From Promethearchaeota archaeon (GTDB lineage Archaea > Asgardarchaeota > Lokiarchaeia > Sigyniarchaeales > SOKP01), in the NCBI GenBank assembly GCA_048941185.1, contig JBHLNW010000006.1:1115-65114 (forward strand): a DNA stretch of 64,000 bases, read 5' to 3'. Shown piece after piece: positions 8,041 through 27,991 of the stretch; within the stretch, counting starts at the first letter, position 1, and every line of letters starts with the position of its first letter. Under the pieces are notes generated by a model. It worked only from the letters and a program-made list of their open reading frames with translations, had not been told where the DNA came from and ran no database searches. A program made the position numbers and the translations under genes.

Positions 8041-8052
8041 TTTATTAGATAT

Positions 8053-9549: not shown

Positions 9550-9553
9550 ATTA

Positions 9554-10864: not shown

Positions 10865-11294
10865 TTTTACATCAAATTTTTTTTTTAATTTTTATAAATT
10901 ATTAAACGCTTTTTTAAAAAAGAATTGATGTTTAAAATTATGCTGTATGTTATTAAAAAATTTCTGCTTTCTAAATAAGGGGTATATATATATGTTTCAA
11001 AATTAAACATAAATGCAGTAAAAATAAGCGAATAATAAAAAAAAAAAATTAAATTTAAATTCGATTTTTAAAATATTTGGAGATTTTCTAAAATTTCTTA
11101 AGCATAAATCTTTGAAAATCTAAAAATATTTAGCAAGAGTAAATAGATTTTATAAAAATATAGCTATATTGTATAAATTAATGCTTTATTTAGTTCTTTT
11201 TGTAAATTTGTGAAATTTCCTGAAAAAATAAGGTATTATAGTAATTATATTTTAATTGGAATAGAATTATAAGTTCAAGTAAAGAAAAGTAACA

Positions 11295-11858
11295 TCAAAA
11301 AGAGCCGCACCCATTGCATTTTCCATCAAGATATGCGGCACAATCATTACAAACATTTCCACAGTTCTCCTCTTGGCTTTTTTGGCTGAAGAGATTAAGT
11401 GGCAAAAATTTAGGTGTGATAAGTTCTGACACAAAAATGGTAGCAGCATGAAGAATCCCTTTTTTATTTGTAGGCCCACAGAAATTAATATATCTATGTA
11501 AAACATCAATACTTTGACCAATTATCCCTAAAATTAGATTATATTGACCGGTTACGTGTGCTAACAAAAAGACTCTGGGACAAGCTTCATATGCTTTAAT
11601 AATTTTTTGAACTTCGTCGTAATTACTCATTTCCATTAATATAATTGCAACTTTATACTTAAGGTTATTTATATTTGTATTAGCTTGAATTTTAAGAATC
11701 CCAGTATCTTCTAATTTAGAAATACGCTTTGCAATTCCAGTATGACTCATAGTCTCAGTACCGGATTTAAAAATTATTTTTTCCAAGTTTGTTAAACTTT
11801 CACGACCATTGTCAAACAACGCATTTAATATTTGTTTGTCTATTCCATCTAATTGCAT
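11295..11858 (-). CDS. Lrp/AsnC-family HTH protein with Cys-rich C-terminal tail
   Basis: IDKQILNALFDNGRESL..IAKRISKLEDTGILK HTH followed by an RAM-like domain. The tail is CGNVCNDCAAYLDGKCNGCGSF (C-x3-C-x2-C-x7-C-x2-C). Confidence 0.7.
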   Translation of the reverse strand: MQLDGIDKQILNALFDNGRESLTNLEKIIFKSGTETMSHTGIAKRISKLEDTGILKIQANTNINNLKYKVAIILMEMSNYDEVQKIIKAYEACPRVFLLAHVTGQYNLILGIIGQSIDVLHRYINFCGPTNKKGILHAATIFVSELITPKFLPLNLFSQKSQEENCGNVCNDCAAYLDGKCNGCGSF

Positions 11859-12244
11859 AATTTTCTAAATATTAATCAGTAGTTTTGTTAATTATATCTT
11901 AATTTACAGCTTTTAAAGTTTGTCGTTTATAAACAATATGAATATGACTAAAGTAGAGAAAATATTGAATCATTTAAGGTTTTTCAAAAAATGTTAATAT
12001 TTTGATGTTAATTACATAATTTTTTAGAACTTTTTTATTTTTGCCATCTATTAGTTTTATTTTTGAAAGTTTTATTTTTAGTAGTGATTAAGATTTTAGA
12101 TTAAATATTCTACATTGAATGAATATAATATTTTTGATTTTTCAAATTGAAACTTTTAGTTAAAATTTGATGTAAATCGAAACTGAAAAGGATTTGGTGG
12201 TTGAGATTATCCAAATTCTTTAAATATAAAGATTTCTTTTTTAT

Positions 12245-12832
12245 ATGAAAGTTTCTAGTAATATTATTATGCCATTAGATCAGATTGATAAACAGATTCT
12301 AAGTGCATTGTTTAATGATGGACGTGAGAGCTTAAGTTCCTTAAGTAAAAGTATTAAGAAATCTAATCATGATACTATGAGTCATGCAGGAATTGCAAAC
12401 CGTATTTCTAAATTAGAAGATTCAGGTACCCTTAAAATTCAAGGAAATATAAGTGTTAAGAACTTAAATTACTATGTAGCATTCATTTTGATGGAAATGA
12501 AAAATTATGAAGAGGTTCAGAAAGTTAGTGAAGCGTATGTGGAATGCCCAAGAGTTTTTTTATTAGCACATGTGACTGGTCAATATAATTTGATATTTGG
12601 AGTAATAGGGCAAGATATTGATGCTTTGCGCAGATATATTAACTTTTGTGGTCCTACAAATAAAAAAGGAGTATTACATTCTGCAATTATATTCACTGCT
12701 GATTTTATAGTACCTAAATTTCTCCCTCTTAACCTTTTTAGTGGCATAAGTAAAGAACATAAATGTGAGAATATATGTAAGAGGTGCGATGCCTTTATTG
12801 ATGGTAAATGCGGTGGGTGTGGTAATTTTTAA
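12245..12832 (+). CDS. Lrp/AsnC-family HTH protein with Cys-rich tail (paralog of 11295..11858)
   Basis: Collinear with the neighbour along its whole length. The tail is CENICKRCDAFIDGKCGGCGNF. The two genes are divergently oriented. Confidence 0.7.
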   Translation: MKVSSNIIMPLDQIDKQILSALFNDGRESLSSLSKSIKKSNHDTMSHAGIANRISKLEDSGTLKIQGNISVKNLNYYVAFILMEMKNYEEVQKVSEAYVECPRVFLLAHVTGQYNLIFGVIGQDIDALRRYINFCGPTNKKGVLHSAIIFTADFIVPKFLPLNLFSGISKEHKCENICKRCDAFIDGKCGGCGNF

Positions 12833-13193
12833 TATAAGTGGGTTTACTACTTAATATAAGATTATTCAAGTAATAAAAAATTTTTATCCCAAAATTGCTT
12901 CTAATCTATTTTAAAAAATGGCAGGAGATAAATAACTTTATAATCTTACTAATGAATTTTATTCTTTGAGATCCTTATCATTGATTACTTGCTATTATAT
13001 TGTAAGAATGGTTTGATTTAAGTTTCAAATCCAAATAATTTATGAAAAATTGTTAAATATTGAAACATAGTGAAGTTTGATTGTTTAAATTATCCTATTT
13101 AAGTAATGCTTATAAAAGAAGCTTTTTTCTTAAATTTGAAACAATTTACTTATAAATATTCAAAAATGTAAAAAATTTAAAGTGAGATAGAAC

Positions 13194-13841
13194 GTGAACA
13201 AAAAATTTCTACGATTGTTCATACTGGTATTCTTTATTTTCGCAATAATAGGTACTGTCAGTGCGTGGCCAGGTTATATGATAGAATGGGAAGAAACAGA
13301 TCATGGTACATGTCATGCGGGAACATATACAGAGTCAGCAGGTACATTATCTGCAACTATTTCACCCGCAAATATTACAACAGCAATAATCGATCCCGGA
13401 ACTCAATTTAATGTTACACTTACTATAACTGGATTTACAGCAGCGGCAAATAAGCACGTACTAGTTGGTATATCCGCTCGAATTAGTGATAATCATAATT
13501 TCTTTTTTGGAGTTTATAATTATTCAGGAGAACTTGTATCATCGGCGTTTGAGGTGGGATTAGATGCTTCTGGAAATGGTAATAGTACTGTAACAATGAT
13601 TGTATTTGCTCCTGTAACAGGTGGTAGTCATACATTAACTATTGTAGCTGTTGACGGTGGAGAATCATTCCCAACAGTCCAACCATTTAATTATATTAAA
13701 ACATTAATAACTGTCACCGTTAAATCTACTTCTGCTGGAGGAATTCCTGGATTTGAACTAATCTTTATCTTTGCTTCCGCACTTCTTGCCATTATCCCCA
13801 TAGTTCTCGTTATACTCCATAAAAAAAAAGCAAGGAGATGA
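13194..13841 (+). CDS. secreted single-Cys 'HxxCH' domain protein with PGF-CTERM-like anchor (candidate monoheme c-type protein)
   Basis: GTG start and signal peptide ..IIGTVSA. HGTCH, with the Cys codon at 13311-13313, is the only Cys. Beta-rich T/V/S domain. Tail is PGFELIFIFASALLAIIPIVLVILHKKKARR. Confidence 0.6.
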   Translation: MNKKFLRLFILVFFIFAIIGTVSAWPGYMIEWEETDHGTCHAGTYTESAGTLSATISPANITTAIIDPGTQFNVTLTITGFTAAANKHVLVGISARISDNHNFFFGVYNYSGELVSSAFEVGLDASGNGNSTVTMIVFAPVTGGSHTLTIVAVDGGESFPTVQPFNYIKTLITVTVKSTSAGGIPGFELIFIFASALLAIIPIVLVILHKKKARR

Positions 13842-13847
13842 TTTGAA

Positions 13848-14513
13848 ATGAAAAGAAATAAAATATTCATTTTAGTTGTAATAGCAGTTTTAATGGTGGG
13901 AATTATCGGGACAAGTGTGGCATATCCAACAGAAATTCAATATTATCAAGGAGCTTCACATACAGGCTGTCATGGCTCGAGTGATGCAGCCTTATCAGGA
14001 ACCTTAACCGTATCAGCATCAACTTCAGGAAGATTAATTACACTTACAAGCTCAATTCAAGGTTTTGCTGATGCTCTTGAATCTAATAATAATAGATCGG
14101 GAAGTTTCGCTATTGCTATTCCTTTCGAACTTGGAGATAATAAAGAATTTGGTTTAGGAATTGCACAAAACACCGTAAATGGGGTAACTGATTATTGGGG
14201 TGTTGGGATATGGGAAGTTGAATTAGATGCGAATGGTAATACAGTTAATGCACTGAGATTTAGAGTATTAGCACCTCAAGCTGATGGAACTTATAATTTA
14301 ATGGTCGCTGTCGTAAACGCTATGAATACAACTGGTGCCGCACAAAATATTATTTATCTACATAAAGCAGTAGTAGTCACTGTGACTTCAGGTTCTATTA
14401 CGATTGCTTCTTTAGTGCTATTTATTCCATTCAACAGTGTATCATTACTCGTTTCTGGTGGGATTATTGCATCTGTAGTAATTATCTTATTAATTAGACG
14501 TAAGAGAAAATAA
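13848..14513 (+). CDS. secreted single-Cys 'HxxCH' domain protein, C-terminal TM anchor (paralog)
   Basis: Signal peptide, then HTGCH (Cys codon 13968-13970) as the only Cys. GDNKEF motif shared with the paralogs. C-terminal TM followed by RRKRK. Confidence 0.6.
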   Translation: MKRNKIFILVVIAVLMVGIIGTSVAYPTEIQYYQGASHTGCHGSSDAALSGTLTVSASTSGRLITLTSSIQGFADALESNNNRSGSFAIAIPFELGDNKEFGLGIAQNTVNGVTDYWGVGIWEVELDANGNTVNALRFRVLAPQADGTYNLMVAVVNAMNTTGAAQNIIYLHKAVVVTVTSGSITIASLVLFIPFNSVSLLVSGGIIASVVIILLIRRKRK

Positions 14514-14638
14514 AATTTAACTTAAATTTTTTTTTTTTTATAATCTCAAATTTTAAATGTTAAAAAAAAATGTCTTAAATGAAAAAATAGTAATTTTTAT
14601 GAAAGAAAATCAAAATTATAAATTTAAAATATTCTATA

Positions 14639-15370
14639 ATGAATTTCCCGAAATTATTTAAATCCAATTTCATATTAATCCTTTCTTTAATAATATTAAT
14701 AACTAATTTTCTTCTAATTGTAACATTGACTTCGTTAAACTTAATAATATGGGGAAGTCCGAATCGTATAGTATATATAATTTTTTTTTACCATGTTTCT
14801 GGCGCATGGCTAGCATATTTATCATTTGGTATAAGTTTATTATTTCACGTCCTTTATTTAAAGAAAAGACAAATAAATTGGAACCGTTTAGGTACAAATA
14901 GTATTATTGTTGGAGTATTCTTTACTACATTTACTTTGATTACTGGATCATTATGGTATAATGCCACTTCTGGAGATTATAATAACGTTTTTTGGCAGTG
15001 GAGTGATGGGAGACAAACTATGACCTTAGTATTACTTTTATGTTATCTAGCTTACCTAATATTTAGAAATTTGATTGAGGATAAAGAAAAAAGAGCAAAA
15101 TTATCTTCAGTCCTTGGTATCACATTATTTCCTACAATTCCCTTAAGTTACTTCTCAGCAATTATATTTACAAGTTTACATCCCTTAATTAATCCGACTC
15201 CAGGAGAACCAGGAAATATATATTGGGATCCAGTTAAATTATTTATGTTAATTTTTAACTTAATTGGAATAACCATTTTATTTTTATATGCTATTCAAAG
15301 ATTAGGAGAATTAGATAAAGCAAAAGAAAAGTTAGATATAATTATACAAAAAAGGTTAGTGGAGGAATAA
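14639..15370 (+). CDS. ccmC: heme exporter/handling protein CcmC
   Basis: Six TM segments. First heme-ligand motif YHVSGAW, a divergent WWD region FWQWSDGRQT, and second His motif TSLHP. Confidence 0.8.
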   Translation: MNFPKLFKSNFILILSLIILITNFLLIVTLTSLNLIIWGSPNRIVYIIFFYHVSGAWLAYLSFGISLLFHVLYLKKRQINWNRLGTNSIIVGVFFTTFTLITGSLWYNATSGDYNNVFWQWSDGRQTMTLVLLLCYLAYLIFRNLIEDKEKRAKLSSVLGITLFPTIPLSYFSAIIFTSLHPLINPTPGEPGNIYWDPVKLFMLIFNLIGITILFLYAIQRLGELDKAKEKLDIIIQKRLVEE

Positions 15371-15375
15371 TTTAA

Positions 15376-15528
15376 ATGTTACTACAATATTTCTATCCCG
15401 ATTTAATAACAATAAGTGTTAGTTATATATTATTTTGGTTAGTTATTATATTTCTAATTTTATATCCTAAAATTCGATTAAAGAAGATATTGAAAAGAAT
15501 TGAAAAATTAGATAAAAACTTAAAATAA
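15376..15528 (+). CDS. ccmD: CcmD-like small single-TM protein (not in ORF track)
   Basis: My manual translation is MLLQYFYPDLITISVSYILFWLVIIFLILYPKIRLKKILKRIEKLDKNLK (50 aa). It sits in the canonical slot between ccmC and ccmE. The assignment rests on position and topology only. Confidence 0.4.
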   Translation: MLLQYFYPDLITISVSYILFWLVIIFLILYPKIRLKKILKRIEKLDKNLK

Positions 15529-15532
15529 AAGG

Positions 15533-15886
15533 ATGATAGTGATGAAGCTGAAAAAGACTAAAATTATAGCAATAGTTGGAATCGCTATATCTGTGATCAT
15601 TATAATCACATTGCTTACAACAAGTGCACGCCCTTACCTTAAGGTTTCTCAAGTCGCTTTAAATCCCTCAAAGTATGATAATAAACAAATTCAGATTATA
15701 GGGATCGTTGAGGGATTTGCTGGTAACGATTTTAATTTAACTGAAAGTGAATATAGCATTTATATTGATATAAACGGATTGCCTCCTCCAACTGATTTGA
15801 AAAATGGAATTGAAGTTGTTGTAACTGGTCTATTTAATTCCTCCTTGATTTTAGTTGCTACTCAGATTCTTACACAATGTAGTTAG
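15533..15886 (+). CDS. ccmE: heme chaperone CcmE, Cys-type, C-terminally truncated variant
   Basis: N-terminal TM anchor and an OB-fold-like body. The C-terminus ..VATQILTQCS aligns with E. coli ..ADEVLAKH(130)DENY, putting the Cys (15878-15880) at the heme-binding position. The protein stops one residue later. Confidence 0.7.
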   Translation: MIVMKLKKTKIIAIVGIAISVIIIITLLTTSARPYLKVSQVALNPSKYDNKQIQIIGIVEGFAGNDFNLTESEYSIYIDINGLPPPTDLKNGIEVVVTGLFNSSLILVATQILTQCS

Positions 15887-15893
15887 ATCCTAT

Positions 15894-16619
15894 TTAATCA
15901 TATAAAAGATAATCTGAAGTTAAAGCCATAATTGAGCTCATTAGAATAATATGGGCACAAAAAAATATTATTTCATAGTATAAACTTGTTATTACTTCAC
16001 CTTCCAGGATTTTTATATTGATTGAAATAATGGGTGTAATAATGGGAAGAATCAAGGGAAAAAGCAAAATTGGTAAAATAAAAGATTTATTTTTAACATA
16101 CATAGAGAAAGCAGATACTAAACTTCCGCATATAGACAGATCTAATGTTGGTAATAACACTCCCAAAATAATATAAATTATTAATTGAGTTACATTAAAG
16201 TTGCTTATTGAAGGTGCGGATATAAAAGTACTAAACAGAAAAAGGATTATCTCTATAAAAGTTAATAATATTAGACAAAAGATGATTTTACTTGCAATTA
16301 TTAGGTTAGCAGATATAGGGGATGAAAGTATTCCTCCAATTGTTCCAGATTCTTTCTCTTTAACGAAAAGTCTAGACATAATATAAACAAGTGTAAAAAA
16401 AATGATGAGCCAATTTTCAATGACAAAAATCTCTAATGGCATATTTTGATATTGAGTACCGAAATTGTATACTGAAGAAAATATAAAGATTGATATTAAA
16501 TCAAAGAGAAAAATCGAAAATAAATCATTAATTTGTCTAAGTTCAGATCTTATGTCTTTAGTTAAAATTACTTTTAGCAATTTAATCTTTGATTTTAAGG
16601 TCAAGTTCGCATTTTTCAA
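15894..16619 (-). CDS. ccmB: heme exporter membrane subunit CcmB
   Basis: About 6-TM, 241-aa protein immediately downstream of the ABC ATPase within the ccm locus. Confidence 0.65.
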   Translation of the reverse strand: MKNANLTLKSKIKLLKVILTKDIRSELRQINDLFSIFLFDLISIFIFSSVYNFGTQYQNMPLEIFVIENWLIIFFTLVYIMSRLFVKEKESGTIGGILSSPISANLIIASKIIFCLILLTFIEIILFLFSTFISAPSISNFNVTQLIIYIILGVLLPTLDLSICGSLVSAFSMYVKNKSFILPILLFPLILPIITPIISINIKILEGEVITSLYYEIIFFCAHIILMSSIMALTSDYLLYD

Positions 16620-16631
16620 AATAAGATCCTC

Positions 16632-17345
16632 CTAAAAATAAGATTTAATTTCAGTTTCATTGAATTGCTCATTTAAAAAAGCTTTATTGATTTTTCCTTG
16701 TTTTAATATTATTAAATCATCGCAAATTTGTTGGAATACTTCAATTTTATGTGTTGCAAGTATTATCGATATTTTTTCATTATTTTTTAATTCTTTAAAG
16801 AAATTAATTAACATGGCAGTTGCATTATAATCTAATCCTGAAAATGGTTCGTCTAAAAATAATATTGAAGGGTTATGTATTAAAGCTCTAATTAATTCAA
16901 CTTTTTGCTTCATCCCATGGGATAGAACTCCTACAGGTTCATTTATCCAATCTTTTAAATGAAATTTTTCTACTAATTGTTCAATTTTTGACTTCAAAAT
17001 AGTTTTTTTAAAATTTAGATGTAAATTACCATAAAATGTTAAATTTTCAAAAATAGTTAGTTCTTCATAAAGAAAGGATTCATCAGTGGTAATTCCAATA
17101 TTTTGTTTTAAAATGTTTGAATGATCTTTATAGCTCATACCCTCAATTTCAATAGTCCCAAAAGTGGGTTTGAGCAATCCTGATAAAATTTTAATTAAAG
17201 TCGTTTTTCCGGCCCCATTCGCTCCTGCTATCCCAAATATAGTATTTTCTCTTATCATAAAAGATATTTTTTTAAGTGCAAGGAAATATCCAAATTGCTT
17301 TGATATTTTATTACATCTTATTATATTTTTATCGGATTTATCCAT
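16632..17345 (-). CDS. ccmA: heme exporter ABC ATPase CcmA
   Basis: Walker A GANGAGKTT, ABC signature LSHGMKQKV and Walker B ILFLDEP. Confidence 0.8.
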   Translation of the reverse strand: MDKSDKNIIRCNKISKQFGYFLALKKISFMIRENTIFGIAGANGAGKTTLIKILSGLLKPTFGTIEIEGMSYKDHSNILKQNIGITTDESFLYEELTIFENLTFYGNLHLNFKKTILKSKIEQLVEKFHLKDWINEPVGVLSHGMKQKVELIRALIHNPSILFLDEPFSGLDYNATAMLINFFKELKNNEKISIILATHKIEVFQQICDDLIILKQGKINKAFLNEQFNETEIKSYF

Positions 17346-17422
17346 AGGTTCAAATCAATCTTTTTACGACTATTTTAAAACTTAATAAAGAGAAGTAATT
17401 AAAATTAAAAAAAAAATATTTT

Positions 17423-20400
17423 TTATTTAATAAATCGTTTTGTTCTTGAAGTTTTTATTATAATTACTATTCCTGCGATAATTATACTAATTATGCTAAA
17501 ATATAATGAAAAGTCAATAATTTGTTCAATAGTTATTATGTTGTTGGATTTTGATTGTTCATTAACAATAATGTTGTCATATATCATATTCCAATTATTA
17601 TGAGTATCATTTGCGTAAATAATTACAGATATATCCCCTAGTGAATTTGGGATCCAATTATTAACTTCCCAGGTATTTCCAAAGATATTAATCATAGAAT
17701 GATTCGAACCTTCATATTCAATAATGACATCAGAGACATTAGAAAAATCTATAATCTCCACTTGGATCGAAATAGACTGTCCAATCGTTATAGTTTTATC
17801 ACTTATAACTAAATTAGAAAATATAGGACCTTTTGTATCAATGACAGTAATGTTATTCTTTAATGATATTTTGTTATTTTGAGAGTCAATAGCATGAAGT
17901 CTATAGAATTTCAAGCCTACATTACTTAGTGTCCAATTAAAATGCCAAGTTAATCCTCCGTAATTTGTCATAGAATAATTGTTTCCGTTATGCTCAAACA
18001 GAACAAGATTTATTGGAGAAAAATCAAAAATATCAACTTGAAACGATGCAGTGTTACCTAATTCTAATGGATCAGTATTTTCTATTAAATTTGATAAAGT
18101 TGGTGCATTAGTATCCAGTACAGTAATATTGCCTTCAATATAGTGCCAATTATTATTCGTATCTTCTCCAAATATTGTATATAATTTTAGACCTACAGAA
18201 TTCGGAATCCAATTATATTCCCATGTTGATCCTCCGATATTTATCATTGTGTAATTCACACTATCAGTTTCTATTAGCACTTGACTAATACCAGATAAAT
18301 CTGTCACATTAACTTGGATTGTTTCTGTTTGTCCTAACTCTAGAGGATCCACACTTTCTACAAGATTATTTAACGATGGTTGCACTGTGTCTTGAACGGT
18401 TATTGAATTGCTTAAAGAATTCCCATTTCCTTCGGTATCGATTGCATATATTTTATAAGATTTCACTCCAGTACTAATTGGATTCCAACCATTATATTCC
18501 CATATCGATCCACCAATATTTGCCATCGTATAATTCATGCCACTAATTTCTATTAAGACTTTGTTGATTGCTGATAAATCTGTAACATGGATTTGGATTG
18601 TTTCTGTTTGCCCCAATTCTAAAGGATCAGCACTTTCAAATAAATTAGATAAAGTTGGACCATTGGTATCTACTACATTGATATTGCTAGTTAAAGAGTT
18701 CCAATTTCCCTCATTGTCACTTGAGTATATTGTATATGATTCCAATCCAATATTAGCTGGAATCCAATTGTTATATTCCCATACTGAACCCCCAATATTT
18801 ATCATCGTATTATTCACACTATCAATTTCTATTAGCACTTGATTGATACCTGATAAGTCAGAAACGTTAATTTGAATTGTTTCTGTTTGTCCTAATTCTA
18901 AAGGATCAGCGCTCTCAATCAAATTAGATAATGTTGGACCGATAGTATCCACAATAGAAATATTAGCTATTAATGAGATTATATTATTACTTGTATCGTT
19001 AGCGTAAATAGTATAAAATTTTATTCCTGTGCTTGTAGGGTTCCAATTATTGTACTCCCATGTTATTGAATTTATTTTTGACATAGTATAATTAATACCT
19101 TCAATTTCAATATATACAGAACTTATTGGTGCCAAGTCAATAACATCAATTCGGATTATTTCTGTTTGTCCCAATTCTAAAGGATCAGTACTCTCATATA
19201 AGTTTGATAAAATAGGTGCAGTAGTATCAATTACTTCAATAGATCCATTTGTAAAATTCCAGTTATTTGATTTATCTTGAATGTAAATTGTATATAAATG
19301 TGTATTTACAGTACTAGGTACCCAGGTGTCATTTAACCATGTATTTCCTCCAATATACGACATTGAATGATTTGTTCCTTCAAATTCAATTTTAACTTGA
19401 TTAATCCCTGATAAATCTGTAGCATCAATTGAAATCAATACCGACTTTCCGAATTCAAGAGGATCATAACTTTCTGTTAAATTTCCAAAATTGGGAGGTG
19501 TTGTATCTATGACTAATATACTTTCACTAATTAGATTCCAATTATTAAAAGAATCATTAGCATAAATTTTAAATAATTTTGTTCCTACTGTATTTGGTTG
19601 CCATGTATATTCATATCTTTTTCCCCCTATATTTACCATTGTATAATTAGAGATTCCAAGTTCAATAAGTACTTTACTCACTCCATCGCTATCATTAACA
19701 TCAACTTGAATTGTCTCCGATTGCCCTAATTCCAACGGATCAGCACTTTTTGATAAGTTTTGAATTGATGGCCCTGATGAAATAAAAACTTCAATAGATC
19801 CAATTGTTGTATTTAAATTGTTACTGTTATCAATCATGTAAATAGTGTAATCAAAAATTCCTACAGAGATAGGTTTCCAATTAGACCACTCCCATTTATG
19901 TAATCCTTTGAAATTCATTGTGTGATTACTGTTATCATATTCAAGAAATACATCTTTCACTCCTGATCCTGGGGAGTCATAAACTTCAATTGAAATTGTC
20001 TCATTCTGTCCCAATGGGAGAGGATCAGCACTTTCTATTAAAAAATTATATGTTGGAGCTATTGTATCTTCCACATTAATACTATTAGTTATTGAATTCC
20101 AATTTCCTTCAGTATCACTAGCATAAACTGTATATAATTTTGTTCCGGTACTTGTTGGAGTCCAACTATTATATTCCCATATTGAACTACCGATATTTAT
20201 CATTGTATAATTTACACTATTAATTTCCAATAATACTTGATTAATGCCAGATAAATCTGTCACATTAACTTGGATTGTTTCTGTTTGTCCTAACTCTAAA
20301 GGATCGGCACTCTCTACCAAATTAGATAATACTGGAACTGTTGTATCAATTACATTGATATTTCCATTCATCGAATTCCAATTGTTAATCCCGTCTTTTG

Positions 20401-21916
20401 CATAAATATAATATGATTTTAATCCAGTAGTTAAAGGAATCCAATTGTTGTATTCCCAAGTTGAGCTACCAATTTTTGTCATAGTATAATTTACATTATT
20501 GATCTGTATAAGAACCTGTGTAATACCTGATAAATCTGTTACATTGATTTGAATTATTTCAGTTTGTCCCAATTCTAAAGGATCGGCATTTTCAATTAAA
20601 TTGAAAAGAAAAGGAGCTGTAGTATCTTGAACAGTTATTGAATTACTTAAAGAGTTCCAATTTCCTTCGGTGTCATTTACATAAATTGTATAACCTTTGA
20701 CTCCAACTGATAATGGAGTCCAGCTATTGTATTCATATCTAATTCCTCCTGTATTTATCATCGTATAATTTATCCCACCTAATTCTATAAAGACATTACT
20801 AATACCAGATAAATCTGTTACATTAATTTGAATCACTTCTGTTTGCCCTAACTCTAATGGATCCGCACTTTCTATCAGATTTGTTAATGATGGTTGTACT
20901 GTGTCTTGGACGGTTATTGAATTGCTTAAAGAGTTTCCATTTCCTTCAGCATCATTTACGTAAATCACGTAGGGTTTTATCCCTGTACTAATTGGTGTCC
21001 AATCATTATATTCCCATATAGAACCTCCGATGTTTGCCATCGTATAATTCATGCTACTAATTTCTATTAAGACACTATTGATTGCTGATAAATCAGTTAC
21101 ATTAATTTGTATTGTTTCTGTTTGTCCCAATTCTAAAGGATCAGCACTTTCAACTAAATTAGATAAATTCGGTGCTGTAGTATCAGTTACGAGAATATTT
21201 CCAGTTATTGAATTCCAACTTCCATCTGTATCACTAGCATAAATTATGTAGTTTTTAACACCAGTTGTACTCGGATTCCAATTATATTCAAAAGTGTTGC
21301 TTAAAATGTTTGTCATAGTGTAATTTTGTCCTGCTAATTCAATTAAAACTACGCTAACGCTTGTTTCTGAATCGGTTACATCTACCTGAAAGGTTTCTTG
21401 TTGCCCAAATTCTAAAGGATCACTGCTCTCAATAAGATTACTAAATTGAGGAGGAGTGTTTTCTACTTGGACAGTCAGTACTAAATCTCCATGTGCAAAA
21501 TAGGAAGCTGAACCTCCTGCTCTATATATAGCATCAGCATGGAGAGTATAAGTCTGTGCAATAGAGGGGGCAGTAACTTGAAAATTTATAACTGTTGAAT
21601 CTCCAGAACTACCTATTGAAACTGATTTTTGAGTTGTATCAAAAGTAAAATCTTTATTATCACCCAGACCTGGATTCCCACTTGGGAATCCAGCAACAAT
21701 ATTATTCCCTTGAGCTTCTGAGAAGCTTAACACTTGAATGCTAACTACAAAATTTTCATTTGGAGTAACAGATAATCCTGAACTTGATGACAATGTTACA
21801 TATCCTGTAGCACTCTGCGTGATATTTCCATGGCAACTAGCATGACCTTCTCCTGTAAAATCATTAAAATCTTGCGTTCTAGCTATAGCAAGACCTATAA
21901 TTGAAAAAACCAGCAT
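17423..21916 (-). CDS. giant surface protein: N-terminal single-Cys 'HxxCH' domain, 14 tandem Ig-like repeats and a C-terminal TM anchor
   Basis: 1497 aa with exactly one Cys (GHASCH, codon 21833-21835). The N-domain shares GDNKDF with the small paralogs. Many N-x-S/T sequons. C-terminal TM followed by a basic tail. The true start may lie upstream of the ATG (see findings). Confidence 0.8.
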   Translation of the reverse strand: MLVFSIIGLAIARTQDFNDFTGEGHASCHGNITQSATGYVTLSSSSGLSVTPNENFVVSIQVLSFSEAQGNNIVAGFPSGNPGLGDNKDFTFDTTQKSVSIGSSGDSTVINFQVTAPSIAQTYTLHADAIYRAGGSASYFAHGDLVLTVQVENTPPQFSNLIESSDPLEFGQQETFQVDVTDSETSVSVVLIELAGQNYTMTNILSNTFEYNWNPSTTGVKNYIIYASDTDGSWNSITGNILVTDTTAPNLSNLVESADPLELGQTETIQINVTDLSAINSVLIEISSMNYTMANIGGSIWEYNDWTPISTGIKPYVIYVNDAEGNGNSLSNSITVQDTVQPSLTNLIESADPLELGQTEVIQINVTDLSGISNVFIELGGINYTMINTGGIRYEYNSWTPLSVGVKGYTIYVNDTEGNWNSLSNSITVQDTTAPFLFNLIENADPLELGQTEIIQINVTDLSGITQVLIQINNVNYTMTKIGSSTWEYNNWIPLTTGLKSYYIYAKDGINNWNSMNGNINVIDTTVPVLSNLVESADPLELGQTETIQVNVTDLSGINQVLLEINSVNYTMINIGSSIWEYNSWTPTSTGTKLYTVYASDTEGNWNSITNSINVEDTIAPTYNFLIESADPLPLGQNETISIEVYDSPGSGVKDVFLEYDNSNHTMNFKGLHKWEWSNWKPISVGIFDYTIYMIDNSNNLNTTIGSIEVFISSGPSIQNLSKSADPLELGQSETIQVDVNDSDGVSKVLIELGISNYTMVNIGGKRYEYTWQPNTVGTKLFKIYANDSFNNWNLISESILVIDTTPPNFGNLTESYDPLEFGKSVLISIDATDLSGINQVKIEFEGTNHSMSYIGGNTWLNDTWVPSTVNTHLYTIYIQDKSNNWNFTNGSIEVIDTTAPILSNLYESTDPLELGQTEIIRIDVIDLAPISSVYIEIEGINYTMSKINSITWEYNNWNPTSTGIKFYTIYANDTSNNIISLIANISIVDTIGPTLSNLIESADPLELGQTETIQINVSDLSGINQVLIEIDSVNNTMINIGGSVWEYNNWIPANIGLESYTIYSSDNEGNWNSLTSNINVVDTNGPTLSNLFESADPLELGQTETIQIHVTDLSAINKVLIEISGMNYTMANIGGSIWEYNGWNPISTGVKSYKIYAIDTEGNGNSLSNSITVQDTVQPSLNNLVESVDPLELGQTETIQVNVTDLSGISQVLIETDSVNYTMINIGGSTWEYNWIPNSVGLKLYTIFGEDTNNNWHYIEGNITVLDTNAPTLSNLIENTDPLELGNTASFQVDIFDFSPINLVLFEHNGNNYSMTNYGGLTWHFNWTLSNVGLKFYRLHAIDSQNNKISLKNNITVIDTKGPIFSNLVISDKTITIGQSISIQVEIIDFSNVSDVIIEYEGSNHSMINIFGNTWEVNNWIPNSLGDISVIIYANDTHNNWNMIYDNIIVNEQSKSNNIITIEQIIDFSLYFSIISIIIAGIVIIIKTSRTKRFIK
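17555..21454 (-). repeat. 14 in-frame tandem coding repeats of about 279 bp (about 93 aa)
   Basis: The consensus unit is xPxLSNLxESADPLELGQTETIQINVTDLSGIxxVLIEIxxxNYTMxNIGGSxWEYNxWxPxSxGxKxYTIYAxDxEGNWNSxxxxIxVxDT, recurring 14 times. Units 2 and 11 are nearly identical. Confidence 0.9.
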
Positions 21917-22253
21917 AATTGTGATTAAAAACGAATAAGTTTTTCTTTTAATTCTCGTTTATATCCCCGTTTTTAATATTTAAATAAAAATATATATATT
22001 TAATATAGAGAAATCTAAGAAATATTAAAAGATTTGTCAAAACTGGTTATTTTTAACAATTGAATAAGTGTTAGTTTCAATTTAAGATAAAAATCATTAT
22101 GATAGTTTAAATTTGAACCATTCAGAAATAGTTTAATTTGCCTAGATCTAAAGAATTCAATAAGTTAAATATTAAACGTATTTCTAAGATATTAATATTT
22201 TTCTTAGCCGTTTATCCCAAGAATTAAGTCTATAATGAAACTTATATACTGAA

Positions 22254-23972
22254 TTAGTCGTTCTGTTTGAATTGCCTCTTTGTTGGAAAAAAGCTAATAA
22301 GAATTGAAGGAACTATCCCTATCATTAGTAATATGAATCCTGGAATGAAAAAGATATCTTGAAAATTAGCTGACATTAAAAATCCAGCAAGAATTAAGGA
22401 GATTCCAGCATGAATTATTGTTTTTGAATTTAACCTAAAAAAATATTTAATCCCCCTTTTTAAATTTAAATTCTTCGCTAATTTGAAGATAGAAGAAAAA
22501 AATGACATCATGTAAATCCATAGCACTGGATTTATCCAGATATTAGATACAAATAACAAGATAAATGACAATATAATTTGAATTAATAATCCTATAACTA
22601 TAACTGATACTATCCCTTTAATGCTAAAACTTTCCCATAAAGAACAAAAAATCAATGATAAAGCTAAACCTGTTGCTAAAATTAAAGAAGTTATAATAAA
22701 ATATTCGGGACCGATGCTAACAATATTTATTGGAACTAAATTTGAAAGAAGATAGGTGAATGGAGGGATAAACAGCCCAAAGATACAGACAAAAGCTAAA
22801 CCAAATAAAAAAATATAACTTAAATAATCAAAAAATAGTTTTTTATTCCGATATTCCTCCATTAAATAATCTAATACTATATAAATTACATAAAGGGGAA
22901 GCAAGATTAGTACTAGGCCTAAAAGTACTACCCAAATAACTAGTTCTGCCCCTTCAGTAAACGTATGAAGCGAATTTAACCCTCCTCCACGTGTAATTAA
23001 TGTCGAAAATACAATTGAAGAAAAAATTAAAGCTACATTTATCTTTATTAATATGGGTTTTTTTTTCTTAAAAATCACGGTATGAAAGAAAGCTGTTATA
23101 AAAAACCATGGAATGAGGGAAACTGTTTCGACGGGATCCCAACCCCAATACCTCCCCCAAGTTAAAGCAATTTTAGCCCAATACGCACCTAATCCTATGC
23201 TTAGGGACATAACTAACCACCCAAATTTTAAGGCGAAATTATAGAATTTATCCTGATATAATTCTATAAGTTTTGATTTAGGAGTTATGACTTCAGCGAT
23301 TATTATTGTAAATGGCACTAAAAAAACAGCATAAGCGATAAATGTAAAAAAAGGATGCCAAATCATAAATGGAGATATTAAAAGTGGATTTAAACCTAAC
23401 CCATCAGAAGGAGAAGATGATTGAAGTTCAAAAGGATTTAAGTAGAATAATATTATTAAGAAAATTGATGAAATTATTGATGACAAAATAACTGAGCGTA
23501 TAAAAACTAAATCTTCGTTATTATGATTCCCAATCCTATAGAAATTAATTATTATTGAATTAAATAACATCCAAGTCATAATTGATCCTTCTTCACCAGC
23601 CCAAATTGCTACAATTTTATAAATTAGAGGAAGGGAATTATTGCTATAATACATTACATATACAATTTTATAAGAGTTATTTACAAAACTGTAAACCATA
23701 ATTAAAAACAAAAACAATGATAAGTTCATGGCTAACATAGTTAAAAAATAGACGTTCTGTTTTTTAGTAATTAGAAAAATGAGATCCAAGACCATTATGA
23801 TAATTAGAAAAATGATTGAGAGACTACCCATTAGTGATATAAAAATAATTCTAAAATTTACTTCTATTGTATTTAATAACAATGGAATTACAATTATAAT
23901 GATGAGAATTAAAATCAAATTAAGAAAAACAGTCTTTTTCACAGACCAATTACTACGCATTAAACAAATCAC
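22254..23972 (-). CDS. ccmF: cytochrome c heme lyase/handling protein CcmF
   Basis: Polytopic membrane protein with the WWD motif WGRYWGWDPVE and His motifs (WHPFFTF, NSLHTF). Confidence 0.85.
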   Translation of the reverse strand: MICLMRSNWSVKKTVFLNLILILIIIIVIPLLLNTIEVNFRIIFISLMGSLSIIFLIIIMVLDLIFLITKKQNVYFLTMLAMNLSLFLFLIMVYSFVNNSYKIVYVMYYSNNSLPLIYKIVAIWAGEEGSIMTWMLFNSIIINFYRIGNHNNEDLVFIRSVILSSIISSIFLIILFYLNPFELQSSSPSDGLGLNPLLISPFMIWHPFFTFIAYAVFLVPFTIIIAEVITPKSKLIELYQDKFYNFALKFGWLVMSLSIGLGAYWAKIALTWGRYWGWDPVETVSLIPWFFITAFFHTVIFKKKKPILIKINVALIFSSIVFSTLITRGGGLNSLHTFTEGAELVIWVVLLGLVLILLPLYVIYIVLDYLMEEYRNKKLFFDYLSYIFLFGLAFVCIFGLFIPPFTYLLSNLVPINIVSIGPEYFIITSLILATGLALSLIFCSLWESFSIKGIVSVIVIGLLIQIILSFILLFVSNIWINPVLWIYMMSFFSSIFKLAKNLNLKRGIKYFFRLNSKTIIHAGISLILAGFLMSANFQDIFFIPGFILLMIGIVPSILISFFPTKRQFKQND

Positions 23973-24152
23973 ATTGAATGTAATATTAAAGAATTTTAAT
24001 AAAAGTTTTTAAAATAAAACATAAGTACATAAATTAGGTGTAATTTTTGCTCTAATCTTTTAAAAAAATCTTTATTTTTAAAATATATGAAAAATGTTTA
24101 AAAAGAAATACTCATAGATTAAAAATACTTTAAATCTGGTAAACGAGATATT

Positions 24153-25025
24153 ATGAAAAAGAAAATTCTAATTTTTATAATTTGCATTATCGGGTTGATG
24201 AGCGTTTCGCTTTTTGTCTTTGGAACCGCAAGACCCCCGTTTGGTGATACTCATTCTTCTAGTGGATGTCATGATTCCCCTGGGTCGTATACAATTTCAT
24301 ATACCAGTCCCGTAAGAACTGAAATTAATAATACTGCTTATTATATTTTTAACGTTTCAGCAACTGGATCTGATTTGTTTTTACAAGCATACCCTGGTGC
24401 TAAAGATAATGATAACTTTAACATATTACCATCAAATAATAAAATAGTTGATGCATCAATAGATGATCTTGATCCAAATCCAAATGCAATGACTATTGCG
24501 TTTAATGTGACACCAACTGTAGAGAAGGTTTCCTATATTCTTTTTATAATTGCAGGAAATAATTTAACTGGAGGTCAAGTATTTGCTTATGCTGAGATTA
24601 CAATTGGAGCTCCTGTAGGATTTGATCTATTTTCTGCAATATTTAATCATTTAGGTTTATATCTAGGACTACCAGCATTGTTATTAGTTTCACTCGCAAC
24701 GGTCCTAGTTTTAGTGAATGAAAATAAGTTTGTTAAAACTCATGGGATCCTCGCAGGGGGTTCATGGATTTTGACAGTGATCAATGTAATTGTCGCTTTT
24801 ATAAGAATACCTGCTGGTGCTTGGCTTGGAGGCTACGAATTGATCTATCACCTACCACATATAATTCTCGGGTCATTAGGATTAGTAACTGGGTTTTTAA
24901 GTATGTTATTTGGGATTGCTGCGGAAAGAAAACCAGCAAAAATTACAGGTTATTTAACCTTATTAAGTTGGTGGGGTGCATTTCTTTTAGGTTATTTTCT
25001 AAACTCCAATTTACTTTTAATTTGA
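24153..25025 (+). CDS. single-Cys 'CH' domain fused to a C-terminal 4-TM His-containing membrane domain
   Basis: Signal peptide, then THSSSGCH (Cys codon 24267-24269). Paralogous beta-rich domain with KDNDNF. Four TM helices follow, carrying His residues (NHLGLY, KTHGIL, IYHLPHII). Confidence 0.65.
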   Translation: MKKKILIFIICIIGLMSVSLFVFGTARPPFGDTHSSSGCHDSPGSYTISYTSPVRTEINNTAYYIFNVSATGSDLFLQAYPGAKDNDNFNILPSNNKIVDASIDDLDPNPNAMTIAFNVTPTVEKVSYILFIIAGNNLTGGQVFAYAEITIGAPVGFDLFSAIFNHLGLYLGLPALLLVSLATVLVLVNENKFVKTHGILAGGSWILTVINVIVAFIRIPAGAWLGGYELIYHLPHIILGSLGLVTGFLSMLFGIAAERKPAKITGYLTLLSWWGAFLLGYFLNSNLLLI

Positions 25026-25047: not shown

Positions 25048-26544
25048 ATGGTTCAGTCTAACAATAATAATATGAAAAGTAAAAAAAGGACAAAAAGAAG
25101 CAAAGATCTTGAAGCTCAATTTTTGGAATTTATATCTCCGTATCATGTAAGTACGAATCCTTTTGAACTTGAATCTGCTTCAGCAGATCTCACCTCATTA
25201 CCTGCATATCATTATAAATTTAAAAAAGAATATTTAGCTAGTTATGTTATACGGCCAGCTAACGTTAATGAATTATCATTAGCAATACAAAAATGCAGAA
25301 AACTCAATATCCCAGTAACAATTAGGGCTGCTGGAACTTCATGTTTCTCTTCAGCGACACCCTCTAAGGGAGGAGTGATTATAGATATACGTAGATTAAA
25401 TAAGGTTCAAGAAATAAATCAAGAGGAAATGACAGTAACAGTAGGCAGTGGAATATCTTGGTTAAATTTAATAGAAGCATTATCTGATTATGGTCTTGAA
25501 CCAAAGACATTTCCAACAAGTTTTAAAACTTCCTGTGTAGGCGGATTTATTGCAACCCCAGGAAAAGCAGGCATAGGTGTCGTTAAATATGGAACAATGG
25601 AGTCTACGATCATTTCATTAGATTTAGTTAAACCAGATGGTTCACTAATACGAATATCGAGAAACTCTTCGGATGAAATAAGCCTTAATGATATTATAGG
25701 AACATATGGTATATTTGGGGCAATAGCAAATGTTAAATTATCTATAACTACACTGAAAAATTCATTAGAAATAATAGGGTATGGTTTTAATTCAATTGAA
25801 CAAGCAATTAATTTTTATTTGACGATAAAGGAGGATCTACCTAATAAACCATTATTTCTCTCAATTTCAGAAAGGAAATTTGAAAAATATTCGCATGTAA
25901 CTTTCCCAAAGCAAGAATGGATTGTTTGGGCCGTATTTTATGACGATCCTGAACAAACCTCAAAAAGTATATCAGATGTTAAATCTTATGCATCAAAGAT
26001 AAACTGTGCTGAGATAGAAAGTTCCTATTTGAAAGAAAAGTGGCGCGATATTAGTGATGCTGAGGTATCAATAGGATTATCAACAAGAAATTTAATATTC
26101 CAGGAATATTGGATCTCTGACAAGAGATTAAAAAACTTCATGGAATTGTATATAAAACAAAATAAAAAATATAAATTTCCTACAGCTTCATATGCAATTT
26201 CAGGAGAAAAAGGATGGACAAGAGTAAAGATTTTTGGTCTAACTGATATAGAAAGAACTCTTGAATTTTTTGCGGTTAAGGCTTTCTTACATGATTTAAC
26301 TGTTCAGGCATTCAATCAAGGAGATAGATTATACACAATCGGGATTGTCAATACATTTTACTTACTAAAATATAAGCCAGAAGAAGTAAAGAAATGGAAA
26401 ATGTTAAAAGATAAATTAGATCCAAAACATTTATTCAATTCATATAGATTAACTAAAGCCAAAATGAAATTCTGGAGAGTATCATTACTTTTCACAACAG
26501 CAAAACTATTATACAAGTTATTTAAAATAAAGAAGTCTAATTGA
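25048..26544 (+). CDS. FAD-binding PCMH-type oxidoreductase (GlcD / D-lactate dehydrogenase-like)
   Basis: FAD-binding domain pattern (VIRPANVNEL.., VTIRAAGTS.., GGVIIDIRRLN, VTVGSGISW). Starts 23 nt after the preceding gene. Confidence 0.7.
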   Translation: MVQSNNNNMKSKKRTKRSKDLEAQFLEFISPYHVSTNPFELESASADLTSLPAYHYKFKKEYLASYVIRPANVNELSLAIQKCRKLNIPVTIRAAGTSCFSSATPSKGGVIIDIRRLNKVQEINQEEMTVTVGSGISWLNLIEALSDYGLEPKTFPTSFKTSCVGGFIATPGKAGIGVVKYGTMESTIISLDLVKPDGSLIRISRNSSDEISLNDIIGTYGIFGAIANVKLSITTLKNSLEIIGYGFNSIEQAINFYLTIKEDLPNKPLFLSISERKFEKYSHVTFPKQEWIVWAVFYDDPEQTSKSISDVKSYASKINCAEIESSYLKEKWRDISDAEVSIGLSTRNLIFQEYWISDKRLKNFMELYIKQNKKYKFPTASYAISGEKGWTRVKIFGLTDIERTLEFFAVKAFLHDLTVQAFNQGDRLYTIGIVNTFYLLKYKPEEVKKWKMLKDKLDPKHLFNSYRLTKAKMKFWRVSLLFTTAKLLYKLFKIKKSN

Positions 26545-26647: not shown

Positions 26648-27991
26648 ATGAGTGAAGGAAAAGAAAAAAAAGATTTAAAAAGTGTGATAACTTCTGGTCC
26701 ACCCGTAGCAGGTTTAGTTTCTCCTTCAAGAGATAATTTAGTCGAGCCTTCTAAGAAATTTAGTGAAAGATATTCCTATGAAAGATGTACTCATTGTGGA
26801 TATTGTCGCCATGTTTGTAAGGTTTATAACACTTCTTGGTGTGAAACTGATTATGCTGGGGGGCGAAATAGAATTATTAAAGCGCTGGATAGAAAAGATA
26901 TAAAATTCGATAAAGAGGAAATAATTCCTTCGGTTTTTCGATGTATGTTGTGTGGTAATTGTAAAGTTGTATGCCCTGTCCAAGTTGATACATTGAGTGT
27001 ATTCCAACATTTCAGAAAACAGGTAGTAAAAAAGGGTGCTATACCTGAAAAATTGAAGATCCTTAAAAGTTCAATATTAGAAAACAATAATCCGTTTCTA
27101 GAAAAACATGGCGATAGATTTAATTGGGTTAATTCTTGTGAAGAAGGGGCTGAAGCTTATGAACGTAGCATACAAAAACCTGAGATCCAAGTTGCAAAGA
27201 AAAAGGATTTTTCTGTTGGCTATTTTGTAGGATGTACATCTTCATATAGAAATAAAGAGCTCGTTTCATCAACTAGTCGAGTCTTAAAGAAATTAGGAGT
27301 TGAATTCACACTTTTTCCAGAAGAAAGATGTTGTGGTTCTGTTTTATTTCGGACAGGATTAGAAGATGAAGCCATTAACCTTGTAAGACATAATTACGAA
27401 ATGATCCGTAAAAGCGGGGTAAAAGAAGTTGTTTTCTCTTGTTCTGGATGTTTTTCGACATTTTCCCTTGAATATTCTAAATTTGCGAACTATCAACTTG
27501 GATTTGATTTATATCATATTACTCAATACGCTTTAAAAGTTGTAAAAGAAAAAAATCTTAAAATCCGATACACGAAGCGTTCAAAGGAGGATCCTTTACT
27601 TATAACATATCATGATCCTTGTCATTTAGGACGATATTGTGATGTTTTTGAAGAACCTAGAGAACTCATTCGAAGAATTGAGGGTGTAAAGTTATTTGAG
27701 ATGAAACATAATAGAGAAATGTCTTGGTGTTGCGGTGCAGGTGGAGGTGTGAAAGCACTTTATGGAGATGTAGCACTTGAAGTAGGAAGAGATAGATTAA
27801 CAGAAACAAGGGCTTGTATGGCAAGAATGCGTGAAGATCGTTTGAAAGAAGCAATTGAAACATCTGCAGAAGTTCTAGTAAGTTCCTGCGTCTTTTGTAA
27901 GAATAATTTGTATCAAGTAGCATCTGAGGATAATTCTCCTATTAAAGTTATGGATATTTCACAACTTTTAGCTGATTGTGAGTTTTATTAG
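26648..27991 (+). CDS. Fe-S / CCG-domain oxidoreductase (GlcF / HdrD-like)
   Basis: CTHCGYCRHVC and CMLCGNCKVVCP cluster motifs, plus two CCG-type domains (ERCCGS.., WCCGAGGG.., CVFCK). Confidence 0.75.
   Translation: MSEGKEKKDLKSVITSGPPVAGLVSPSRDNLVEPSKKFSERYSYERCTHCGYCRHVCKVYNTSWCETDYAGGRNRIIKALDRKDIKFDKEEIIPSVFRCMLCGNCKVVCPVQVDTLSVFQHFRKQVVKKGAIPEKLKILKSSILENNNPFLEKHGDRFNWVNSCEEGAEAYERSIQKPEIQVAKKKDFSVGYFVGCTSSYRNKELVSSTSRVLKKLGVEFTLFPEERCCGSVLFRTGLEDEAINLVRHNYEMIRKSGVKEVVFSCSGCFSTFSLEYSKFANYQLGFDLYHITQYALKVVKEKNLKIRYTKRSKEDPLLITYHDPCHLGRYCDVFEEPRELIRRIEGVKLFEMKHNREMSWCCGAGGGVKALYGDVALEVGRDRLTETRACMARMREDRLKEAIETSAEVLVSSCVFCKNNLYQVASEDNSPIKVMDISQLLADCEFY

Follow-up and report, generated by a model that had tools for sequence, protein, structure and literature searches.

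Which proteins does a cytochrome c maturation (Ccm) machinery serve when no secreted protein encoded beside it carries the CxxCH motif of ordinary c-type cytochromes? This question is raised by a 64,000-nucleotide stretch of contig JBHLNW010000006.1 (positions 1,115 to 65,114 of the forward strand; assembly GCA_048941185.1) from a Promethearchaeota archaeon, hereafter the window, in which a cluster of System I ccm genes is interleaved with four genes, here called P1, P2, BIG and P4, for secreted proteins whose mature forms have a lone cysteine in a Cys-His site. From comparison with related loci, these proteins probably form a new family of single-thioether c-type cytochromes, matured by the adjacent Ccm variant and serving as the outer part of a transmembrane electron path similar to those of Tmc and Hmc. 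The window has a GC content of about 29%, and its proteins are 100% identical in two Promethearchaeota (Asgard) metagenome-assembled genomes (MAGs), GCA_048886225.1 and GCA_048940505.1. Gene calls were taken from the list of open reading frames (ORFs) of the window together with Pfam and NCBIfam profile scans, and coordinates are window coordinates unless a locus is named. Several of the claims taken up below come from an earlier reading of the letters, the sequence-only reading.

Four secreted paralogs with a single-cysteine site

A six-frame scan of the window with a hidden Markov model (HMM) of the shared N-terminal domain (N-domain) matched exactly four ORFs, with E-values from 2e-59 to 5e-29. 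P1 (13194-13841, plus strand; 215 amino acids; E 1.6e-57) carries the motif DHGTCH, with C40 as its only cysteine, and P2 (13848-14513, plus strand; 221 amino acids; E 2.1e-59) carries SHTGCH, with C41 as its only cysteine. BIG (17423-21916, minus strand; 1497 amino acids) has GHASCH in its N-domain and likewise one cysteine. P4 (24153-25025, plus strand; 290 amino acids; E 5e-29) combines a signal peptide, a domain with THSSSGCH and a four-transmembrane (4-TM) domain; one of its two cysteines lies inside the signal peptide. The HMM matches and the alignment, in which H, C, H, G and D-N-x-x-F never vary, bear out the earlier claim that the four are paralogs; G-D-N-x-x-F forms the second signature of the domain. 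In all four, moreover, the site cysteine is the sole cysteine of the mature protein and CxxCH is absent, with HxxCH or Hx4CH in its place, just as the sequence-only reading had stated.

All four proteins begin with what reads as a Sec-type signal peptide (K/R n-region, hydrophobic core, A-x-A-type cleavage site), and their motifs lie 12-16 residues past the cleavage site. Two other readings of the cysteine were considered and ruled out: a lipobox, by the 12-16 polar residues between the cysteine and the hydrophobic core, and a redox-active disulfide, by the single cysteine of most family members.

The C-termini differ. P1 ends in an anchor composed of IPGF, a transmembrane helix and KKKARR, and the anchor of P2 resembles a Loki-CTERM sorting domain, which six of 24 P2 orthologs match weakly (best E 1.7e-4). 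In BIG, the N-domain is followed by about 13 Ig-like (Big_7-type) repeats and a C-terminal transmembrane anchor; BIG orthologs of 798-1513 amino acids occur in 9 of the 23 ccmF loci described below. Eight orthologs start with ATG-AGA-ATA-AA(T/A)-AGA-AAA (MRI[NK]RK), and the codon at this position in the window is ACG (21955-21953, minus strand), straight after a TAA stop; the same ACG is found in two independent assemblies from the same organism. Because the orthologs begin at this codon, the annotated ATG would be internal, 13 codons into the signal peptide. Either ACG serves as the start codon, so that the gene extends to 21955 and the protein to 1510 amino acids, or the charged n-region of the signal peptide has been lost.

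The Cys-His pair is conserved across an Asgard protein family

A word-indexed homolog search recovered 65 proteins, none with a Pfam domain; all taxon-labelled ones come from Asgard MAGs, and every one that covers the N-terminus retains the Cys-His pair and the upstream His. An exhaustive HMM search over 1.84 billion cluster representatives (clusters at 50% identity) gave 148 matches at E <=1e-3, of which 71 reached <=1e-10, and all identifiable relatives are Asgard. When 166 members were re-aligned to the profile, Cys and His fell into the same columns in 166 of 166, an agreement far beyond chance. Conservation of this pair in orthologs had been named beforehand as one of the points on which the heme reading could fail, and the pair is retained throughout.

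The position upstream of the pair is far more variable. His occupies it in 128 of the 166 members, as Hx2CH (90 members), Hx3CH (19), Hx4CH (16) or Hx5-6CH (3), at a spacing to Cys of 2 to 6 residues, and it is absent from the remaining 38. Cys is found there in 25 members, giving CxCH (13), CxxCH (8) and Cx4-5CH (4), ten members have neither His nor Cys within seven residues upstream, and three have an insert of 1-2 residues between C and H. For example, FxxCH occurs in P0186 and PxxCH in P0181, and in the P4 orthologs P0183, P0208 and P0210 a Cys stands exactly in the His column, giving GDNCNSCH and with it a canonical CxxCH.

Toggling of the upstream residue beside an invariant Cys-His pair is the pattern expected for a heme-c site that needs only the second Cys and the His; neither a lipobox nor a disulfide nor a metal site explains it readily. 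The proposal of the sequence-only reading that heme c is attached here through one thioether gains support from comparison across the family: the pair does not change, the residue before it may be His, Cys, Pro, Phe or none of these, and one group of P4 orthologs reads CNSCH. The accompanying suggestion that the upstream His is a second axial ligand did not survive this comparison; such a role is unlikely because the residue sits in the column of the first Cys of CxxCH, at variable spacing, and is often absent.

The same columns bear on a rival explanation in which HxxCH is a two-point motif and heme is held by two covalent links, the Cys thioether and a His-vinyl bond from the upstream His. 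His-vinyl adducts occur in holo-CcmE and in the cyanobacterial GlbN haemoglobin, and the His lies exactly in the first-Cys column and is strongly conserved in the clade that has a truncated, Cys-type CcmE. Against this, the distance from His to Cys ranges from 2 to 6 residues, and since 38 members lack the His, 11 of them with neither His nor Cys, it cannot be essential for attachment across the family. We judge a double link to be very unlikely and give it the least weight of the three rivals that we considered.

Several members join the N-domain to other modules. In P0071 and P0083, an HxxCH domain is followed by one transmembrane helix and a cytoplasmic Fer4/CCG (HdrD-like) module, and in P0136 and P0106 the family domain is fused to a DOMON domain. 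In the distant members P0148, P0154 and P0163, whose site reads CxCH, a LanC-like (alpha/alpha)6 domain is joined to the family domain; LanC enzymes form thioethers.

The N-domain is modelled as an Ig-like beta-sandwich

An AlphaFold2 model of the N-domain adopts an Ig-like beta-sandwich with a predicted local distance difference test score (pLDDT) of 82 and a predicted template modelling score (pTM) of 0.80. A fold search with this model against the PDB returned generic Ig-like matches only, with template modelling (TM) scores <=0.45 and no significant cytochrome f, NEAT or DOMON hit; a profile search against PDB sequences gave no match for the domain, and none of the window paralogs matched a Pfam cytochrome c model.

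The only curated models that the domain touches are NF041895 ('choice-of-anchor V') and NF041894 (MXAN_6652 family) of NCBIfam, which we compared by score. All NF041895 scores stay below the cutoff of 42 bits, with P0107 reaching 39.6 as the best member and BIG 19.3, and P1, P2 and P4 have no match. The NF041895 match spans the N-terminal motif region and the sandwich, and this domain is likewise paired with varied C-terminal anchors. A follow-on homolog search with the CxxCH/CxCH subgroup, aimed at true choice-of-anchor V proteins, found only three of the subgroup's own members, one of them labelled Hodarchaeales.

The Ccm proteins of the cluster look functional

The ccm genes lie between the paralogs, on both strands. 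On the plus strand, ccmC (14639-15370; heme-delivery WWD protein; PF01578 6.6e-18, TIGR01191 1.7e-19) is followed by ccmD (15376-15528; 50 amino acids with one transmembrane helix and the motif SYxLFW; PF04995 2.5e-4) and by ccmE (15533-15886; Cys-type heme chaperone; PF03100 4.4e-7, above the gathering score). On the minus strand lie ccmB (15894-16619; ATP-binding cassette (ABC) permease; PF03379 1.7e-11), ccmA (16632-17345; ABC ATPase; PF00005 1.4e-32, with a conserved position as the neighbour of ccmB) and ccmF (22254-23972; heme lyase; TIGR00353 4e-45). The ORF list and the profile scans agree with the gene map drawn earlier, including its statement that ccmG and ccmH are missing from the locus: within the cluster, there is no ccmG, ccmH or ccmI.

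The residues expected of working Ccm proteins are in place. CcmF has WGRYWGWD (272-279) and four invariant histidines (H206, H297, H336 and H521), with a spacing that we take to be that of the four functional histidines of bacterial CcmF. In CcmC, the WxWxD residues W119, W121 and D123 are invariant in 19 orthologs, together with H52, H70 and H181. In 18 loci, ccmC and ccmE have a ccmD gene between them, and each of the 18 orthologs matches PF04995 (best 3.7e-6), which raises the ORF once described as ccmD-like to a genuine ccmD by its sequence. CcmE carries an invariant Cys where the E. coli protein has His130, and the window protein ends ...ILTQCS-stop. Of 20 loci, 19 share this (T/I)QCS-stop terminus, 18 with TQCS and L028 with IQCS, and the CcmE of L032 ends ...YCCDRSTGV. 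Because only Ser comes after the Cys, the Tyr of the CXXXY motif is missing. With catalytic residues intact and CcmD present, the Ccm proteins look functional.

The sequence-only reading had also taken the missing CcmG and CcmH as a sign of a one-Cys site. This argument falls away, because archaea mature normal CxxCH cytochromes with CcmABCEF: Methanosarcina genetics has established that the archaeal System I handles these with the five proteins alone (PMC9084895; also PMC3601427). The absence of CcmG, CcmH and CcmI is therefore uninformative on the number of cysteines at the site.

Family members flank ccmF in Asgard genomes

Relatives of ccmF were sought in GTDB contigs with one genome per species, which yielded 23 loci, 22 of them with usable flanks. 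All 23 come from Asgard MAGs, labelled among others as Promethearchaeota, Hermod-, Thor- and Hodarchaeota. Among them is the complete chromosome CP070831.1 (L032), which has two adjacent ccmF paralogs at about 10001-13500. In all 22 usable loci, one to four family members are found no more than 10 kb from ccmF. About 20 loci share the order HdrD-like, GlcD-like and P4, then ccmF (with or without BIG), ccmA and ccmB, then ccmE, ccmD, ccmC and P2 (with or without P1), followed by AsnC-type regulators and a Vhu/Mvh-type hydrogenase. P4 is paired with ccmF in nearly every locus and divergent from it in most, and Vhu/Mvh-type hydrogenase and HdrC/HdrB-like genes adjoin the cluster in at least 15.

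Neither the window nor the ccmF loci (about 450 kb) encode a secreted CxxCH protein outside the family; their non-family CxxCH ORFs are cytoplasmic Fe-S proteins, namely hydrogenase small subunits, CCG/HdrB-like proteins and FlpD. The presence of the family beside ccmF in all usable Asgard loci supports, by comparison, the proposal that the four window proteins are putative Ccm clients.

The locus of P0210, a P4 ortholog with CNSCH (L010), has the same ccmB-ccmA-ccmF-P4-GlcD-HdrD arrangement. Beside its ccmB, at positions 1-5606 of the locus, lie hemA, hemC, cobA-hemD, an ahbD-like radical-SAM gene, which contains a run of N, and an ahbAB-like/NAD_binding_7 gene. A signal peptidase I gene is located between ccmA and ccmF in this locus (7443-8048, plus strand). 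Elsewhere, L033 contains at 11148-18200 two successive pairs of a P4-like membrane protein with an xLGCHP site and an HdrB-like CCG protein, which suggests a modular unit of cytochrome anchor and CCG protein.

These loci bear on the weightiest rival, according to which the Ccm machinery serves ordinary CxxCH cytochromes encoded elsewhere, and the four proteins are adhesins or S-layer-associated proteins in which H-x-x-C-H binds Cu, Zn, Ni or Fe or has another non-heme role, the ccm linkage reflecting a shared envelope function. In its favour, adhesins typically show Ig-like folds and long Big_7 stalks, the family is distantly related to the choice-of-anchor V surface-protein domain, and the E. 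coli Ccm system handles single-Cys sites badly (PMC3268396). Yet this explanation offers no reason why Cys-His should be the only invariant residues of the loop while the position upstream switches among His, Cys (at the spacings of heme motifs), Pro, Phe and none of these. It also has to accommodate a ccm synteny held over about 20 species, down to the P4-ccmF pairing, the heme-biosynthesis genes in the locus with a CxxCH-type P4, the HdrD-like and DOMON redox modules fused to family members, and the lack of any alternative candidate client near ccm in the 23 loci. We consider it unlikely.

P4 and its redox neighbours

If the site holds heme, P4 would offer a way for electrons to cross the membrane. 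Over 22 orthologs, four histidines of its 4-TM domain do not vary: H166, H233 and H236, located at the outer ends of TM1 and TM3, and H197, located at the inner end of TM2. With these, the domain is a probable heme-b site. The four-helix membrane part is modelled with a pLDDT of 85-93, and the N-domain part of the full P4 model has low confidence because the alignment is shallow. A fold search with the full model returned nothing at E <=0.001, its NEAT match (3vua, probability 0.99, E 0.08) being weak and not significant. Assignment of the membrane domain to a known cytochrome b family was unsupported, as the homolog search gave only close Asgard relatives without Pfam annotation, and there was no Pfam or PDB match. 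In P0217-P0222, a P4-type four-helix, His-rich membrane domain of 127 amino acids stands alone, without the N-terminal CH domain; they could be fragments or the products of split genes.

Downstream of P4 there are always genes for a GlcD-like flavin adenine dinucleotide (FAD) protein and an HdrD/TfrB/TmcB-like Fe-S protein. In the window, the GlcD-like FAD-binding dehydrogenase (25048-26544, plus strand; PF01565 1.3e-32, and TIGR00387 4.4e-31, below its cutoff) comes directly after P4, and the Fe-S protein (26648-27991, plus strand) consists of Fer4_8 and two CCG domains. The latter scores below the cutoffs of TmcB (2.9e-25; 88.7 bits, cutoff 735), HmcF (7.6e-21; 74.4 bits, cutoff 750) and DsrK (1.7e-13); by score it falls outside the TmcB and HmcF families and has only the HdrD-like domain architecture in common with them. 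The conserved P4-GlcD-HdrD operon, the C-terminal anchors and the HdrD-like and DOMON fusions fit the earlier description of a cell-surface redox module.

This setting also bears on the rival of second weight, in which heme does come from CcmABCDE and the proteins act as a surface heme relay, store, sensor or scavenger, like the Ig-like NEAT-domain Isd proteins, and not as electron carriers. The Ig-like sandwich and the weak, non-significant match to 3vua point this way, the tiered short-anchored, long-stalked and membrane-embedded forms resemble a relay, and no distal ligand is conserved. Against this, the operon link with GlcD-like and HdrD-like genes, the Mvh/Hdr genes and the HdrD-like fusions indicate electron transfer, covalent attachment by Ccm is ill-suited to passing heme on, and one locus (L010) makes its own heme. 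A role in heme handling thus seems improbable to us.

On the other side of the cluster, the window encodes a cytoplasmic Vhu/Mvh-type [NiFe] hydrogenase (VhuG-like, 9554-10864; VhuA-like, 8245-9549; both minus strand) beside HdrC-like (7443-7958) and HdrB-like (6545-7423) genes on the same strand. Altogether, the window has two sets with Mvh/Vhu-type small-subunit-like proteins (6545-10864, minus strand, and 31045-38217), whose small subunits are unusually long, at 436 and 466 amino acids (VhuG about 290); they are accompanied by HdrB/C-like genes, an HdrA-FlpD-HdrBC block and hypDEF. Between the hydrogenase genes and P1 lies a divergent pair of Lrp/AsnC-type regulators (11295-11858, minus strand; 12245-12832, plus strand), each with an extra C-terminal CxxCx5GKCxGCG. 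In most loci, regulators with this four-Cys tail have been kept next to the cluster, over which they could exert metal-, Fe-S- or heme-responsive control. Their identification as the siroheme decarboxylase AhbA/B was rejected, since they match Lrp/AsnC regulators such as PH1519 and bear no resemblance to the ahbAB-like gene of L010. Beyond the HdrD-like gene, the minus strand encodes a 712-amino-acid leucine-rich-repeat protein without a Pfam match (28122-30260), which adjoins the HdrD-like gene in L006 too.

Proposed route of heme and electrons

The route that we favour would begin with export of P1, P2, BIG and P4 by Sec. CcmABCD, the Cys-type CcmE and CcmF, together a complete streamlined System I, would export heme and attach it to the Cys-His pair near the mature N-terminus, where the Cys would make one thioether and the His would act as the proximal iron ligand. 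The residue in the place of the first Cys of CxxCH, mostly His in this clade, would be dispensable for attachment. Heme would then sit on an Ig-like beta-sandwich tethered to the cell by a Loki-CTERM/PGF-like anchor, by a stalk of about 13 Ig repeats or by the 4-TM domain. The 4-TM domain of P4, with its predicted heme b, and the products of the co-transcribed GlcD-like (flavoprotein) and HdrD-like (Fe-S protein) genes may form a Tmc/Hmc-like transmembrane conduit that joins redox chemistry in the cytoplasm (a couple of the 2-hydroxyacid or disulfide type, with Mvh/Hdr adjoining) to the surface cytochromes, and these in turn might exchange electrons with partners or minerals. The covalent heme, its single thioether and the direction and partners of this electron flow are what we infer from the gene content, the motif and the synteny.

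Several observations weigh against this route. The first 20 residues of the N-domain model are only moderately confident (pLDDT about 65), and neither fold nor sequence searches detect similarity of the domain to any solved cytochrome. Across the wider family, neither a Met nor a second His stands out as a conserved distal ligand, and some distant members, P0156 in L012 among them, lack a ccm gene in the 10 kb around them. A lone predicted heme at the end of the long, cofactor-free BIG stalk is awkward for a simple wire. Finally, a cytochrome with a single Cys is served very poorly by the Ccm proteins of E. coli, with which it is trapped as a CcmE-heme-cytochrome intermediate (PMC3268396), which is among the reasons why we call the cytochrome reading probable and no more than that.

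The last point could have a remedy in the Asgard Ccm variant itself, with its CcmE cut after the Cys and its retained CcmD. This variant may have co-evolved with HxxCH clients for a novel attachment chemistry, either by resolving the CcmE-heme-client intermediate or by making a mixed His-vinyl and Cys-vinyl linkage. We hold such an adaptation to be doubtful. If it were true, archaea near the eukaryotic stem would own a purpose-built surface electron-transfer apparatus of monoheme Ig-domain cytochromes.

Novelty and significance

Full-text literature searches on ccm in Asgard, on HxxCH and on Asgard heme sites with a single cysteine returned no description of the family, the motif or Asgard ccm genes. 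A ccm-linked novel family has been reported for the bacterial class HRBIN17 (PMC10849945), and a recent Asgard survey treats respiratory cytochromes only in Heimdallarchaeia. While c-type cytochromes with System I are already known, the fold family, the motif, the truncated CcmE, an archaeal CcmD and the operon design are not. Searches for archaeal cytochromes c depend on CxxCH and a signal peptide (PMC4429474). They would score these Asgard genomes as having ccm without clients and would miss an entire family of at least 148 clusters at 50% identity.

Natural single-thioether cytochromes have so far been a curiosity of euglenozoan mitochondria, and the bacterial System I serves single-Cys sites very poorly. 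A prokaryotic System I that routinely serves (H/x)xxCH would, if confirmed, make a tractable system for the roles of the second thioether, of the CcmE ligands and of CcmH. Models of Asgard syntrophy and of eukaryogenesis, furthermore, hinge on the disposal of reducing equivalents. With its putative surface cytochromes, HdrD-like and GlcD-like modules and adjoining Mvh-type hydrogenase, the cluster is a testable candidate for direct electron exchange, as against transfer of H2 or formate only.

Comparison with known systems

The proposed conduit is closest in layout to Tmc, Hmc and DsrMKJOP of sulfate reducers, with which it would share an extracytoplasmic c-type heme module, His-rich membrane helices and a cytoplasmic HdrD-like CCG/Fe-S subunit. 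It differs in that the heme would sit singly on an Ig-like domain fused to the membrane module, in that no cytochrome b family of Pfam or the PDB matches the membrane domain, and in the addition of a GlcD-like flavoprotein.

Cytochrome f has a c-type heme near its mature N-terminus, a mainly beta-sandwich fold and a C-terminal membrane anchor. The Asgard proteins resemble it in the position of the predicted heme site, the sandwich and the C-terminal anchor. Unlike them, cytochrome f has CxxCH. The iron of cytochrome f is liganded by the N-terminal amino group, and the fold search detected no similarity between the two.

Single-thioether cytochromes c and c1 with (A/F)xxCH are known from euglenozoan mitochondria. 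As in these, a lone Cys precedes the predicted His ligand at the Asgard site and another residue stands in for the first Cys; P0186 and P0181 even read FxxCH and PxxCH. The euglenozoan proteins are class I, all-alpha cytochromes, whereas the Asgard family is modelled as an Ig-like sandwich, has no sequence or fold relation to them and belongs to a prokaryotic host. For the Asgard family we presume maturation by Ccm and not by the kinetoplastid-specific system (PMC8262978).

Heme-c motifs are also known to depart from the standard spacing, as in CX3CH, CX4CH, CX15CH, CXXCK and the contracted motif of Ferousi et al (2019), the last cited in PMC11492766. The family site, which shows CxCH, CxxCH and Cx4-5CH, behaves similarly, as expected of a spacing-tolerant heme-c site. 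These non-standard motifs always have two Cys, whereas most family members have one.

The machinery itself is best compared with the variant System I (System I*), reportedly described from archaea and Desulfovibrio by Allen et al in 2006. The window cluster shares with it CcmA, B, C, E and F with their catalytic residues, a CcmE with the invariant Cys, and a CcmF with the WWD motif and four His; within the cluster itself there is no CcmG, H or I. System I* has been reviewed in PMC3601427, CXXXY is given as the rule for its CcmE (PMC3601427, PMC9084895), and CcmD is stated to be universally absent from archaea (PMC9084895). The window cluster departs from this pattern: it has a CcmD, its CcmE stops one residue past the Cys and so misses the Tyr, its ccmF is a single gene and not split, and its ccm genes lie in one cluster, interleaved with presumed clients that carry HxxCH or Hx4CH in place of CxxCH.

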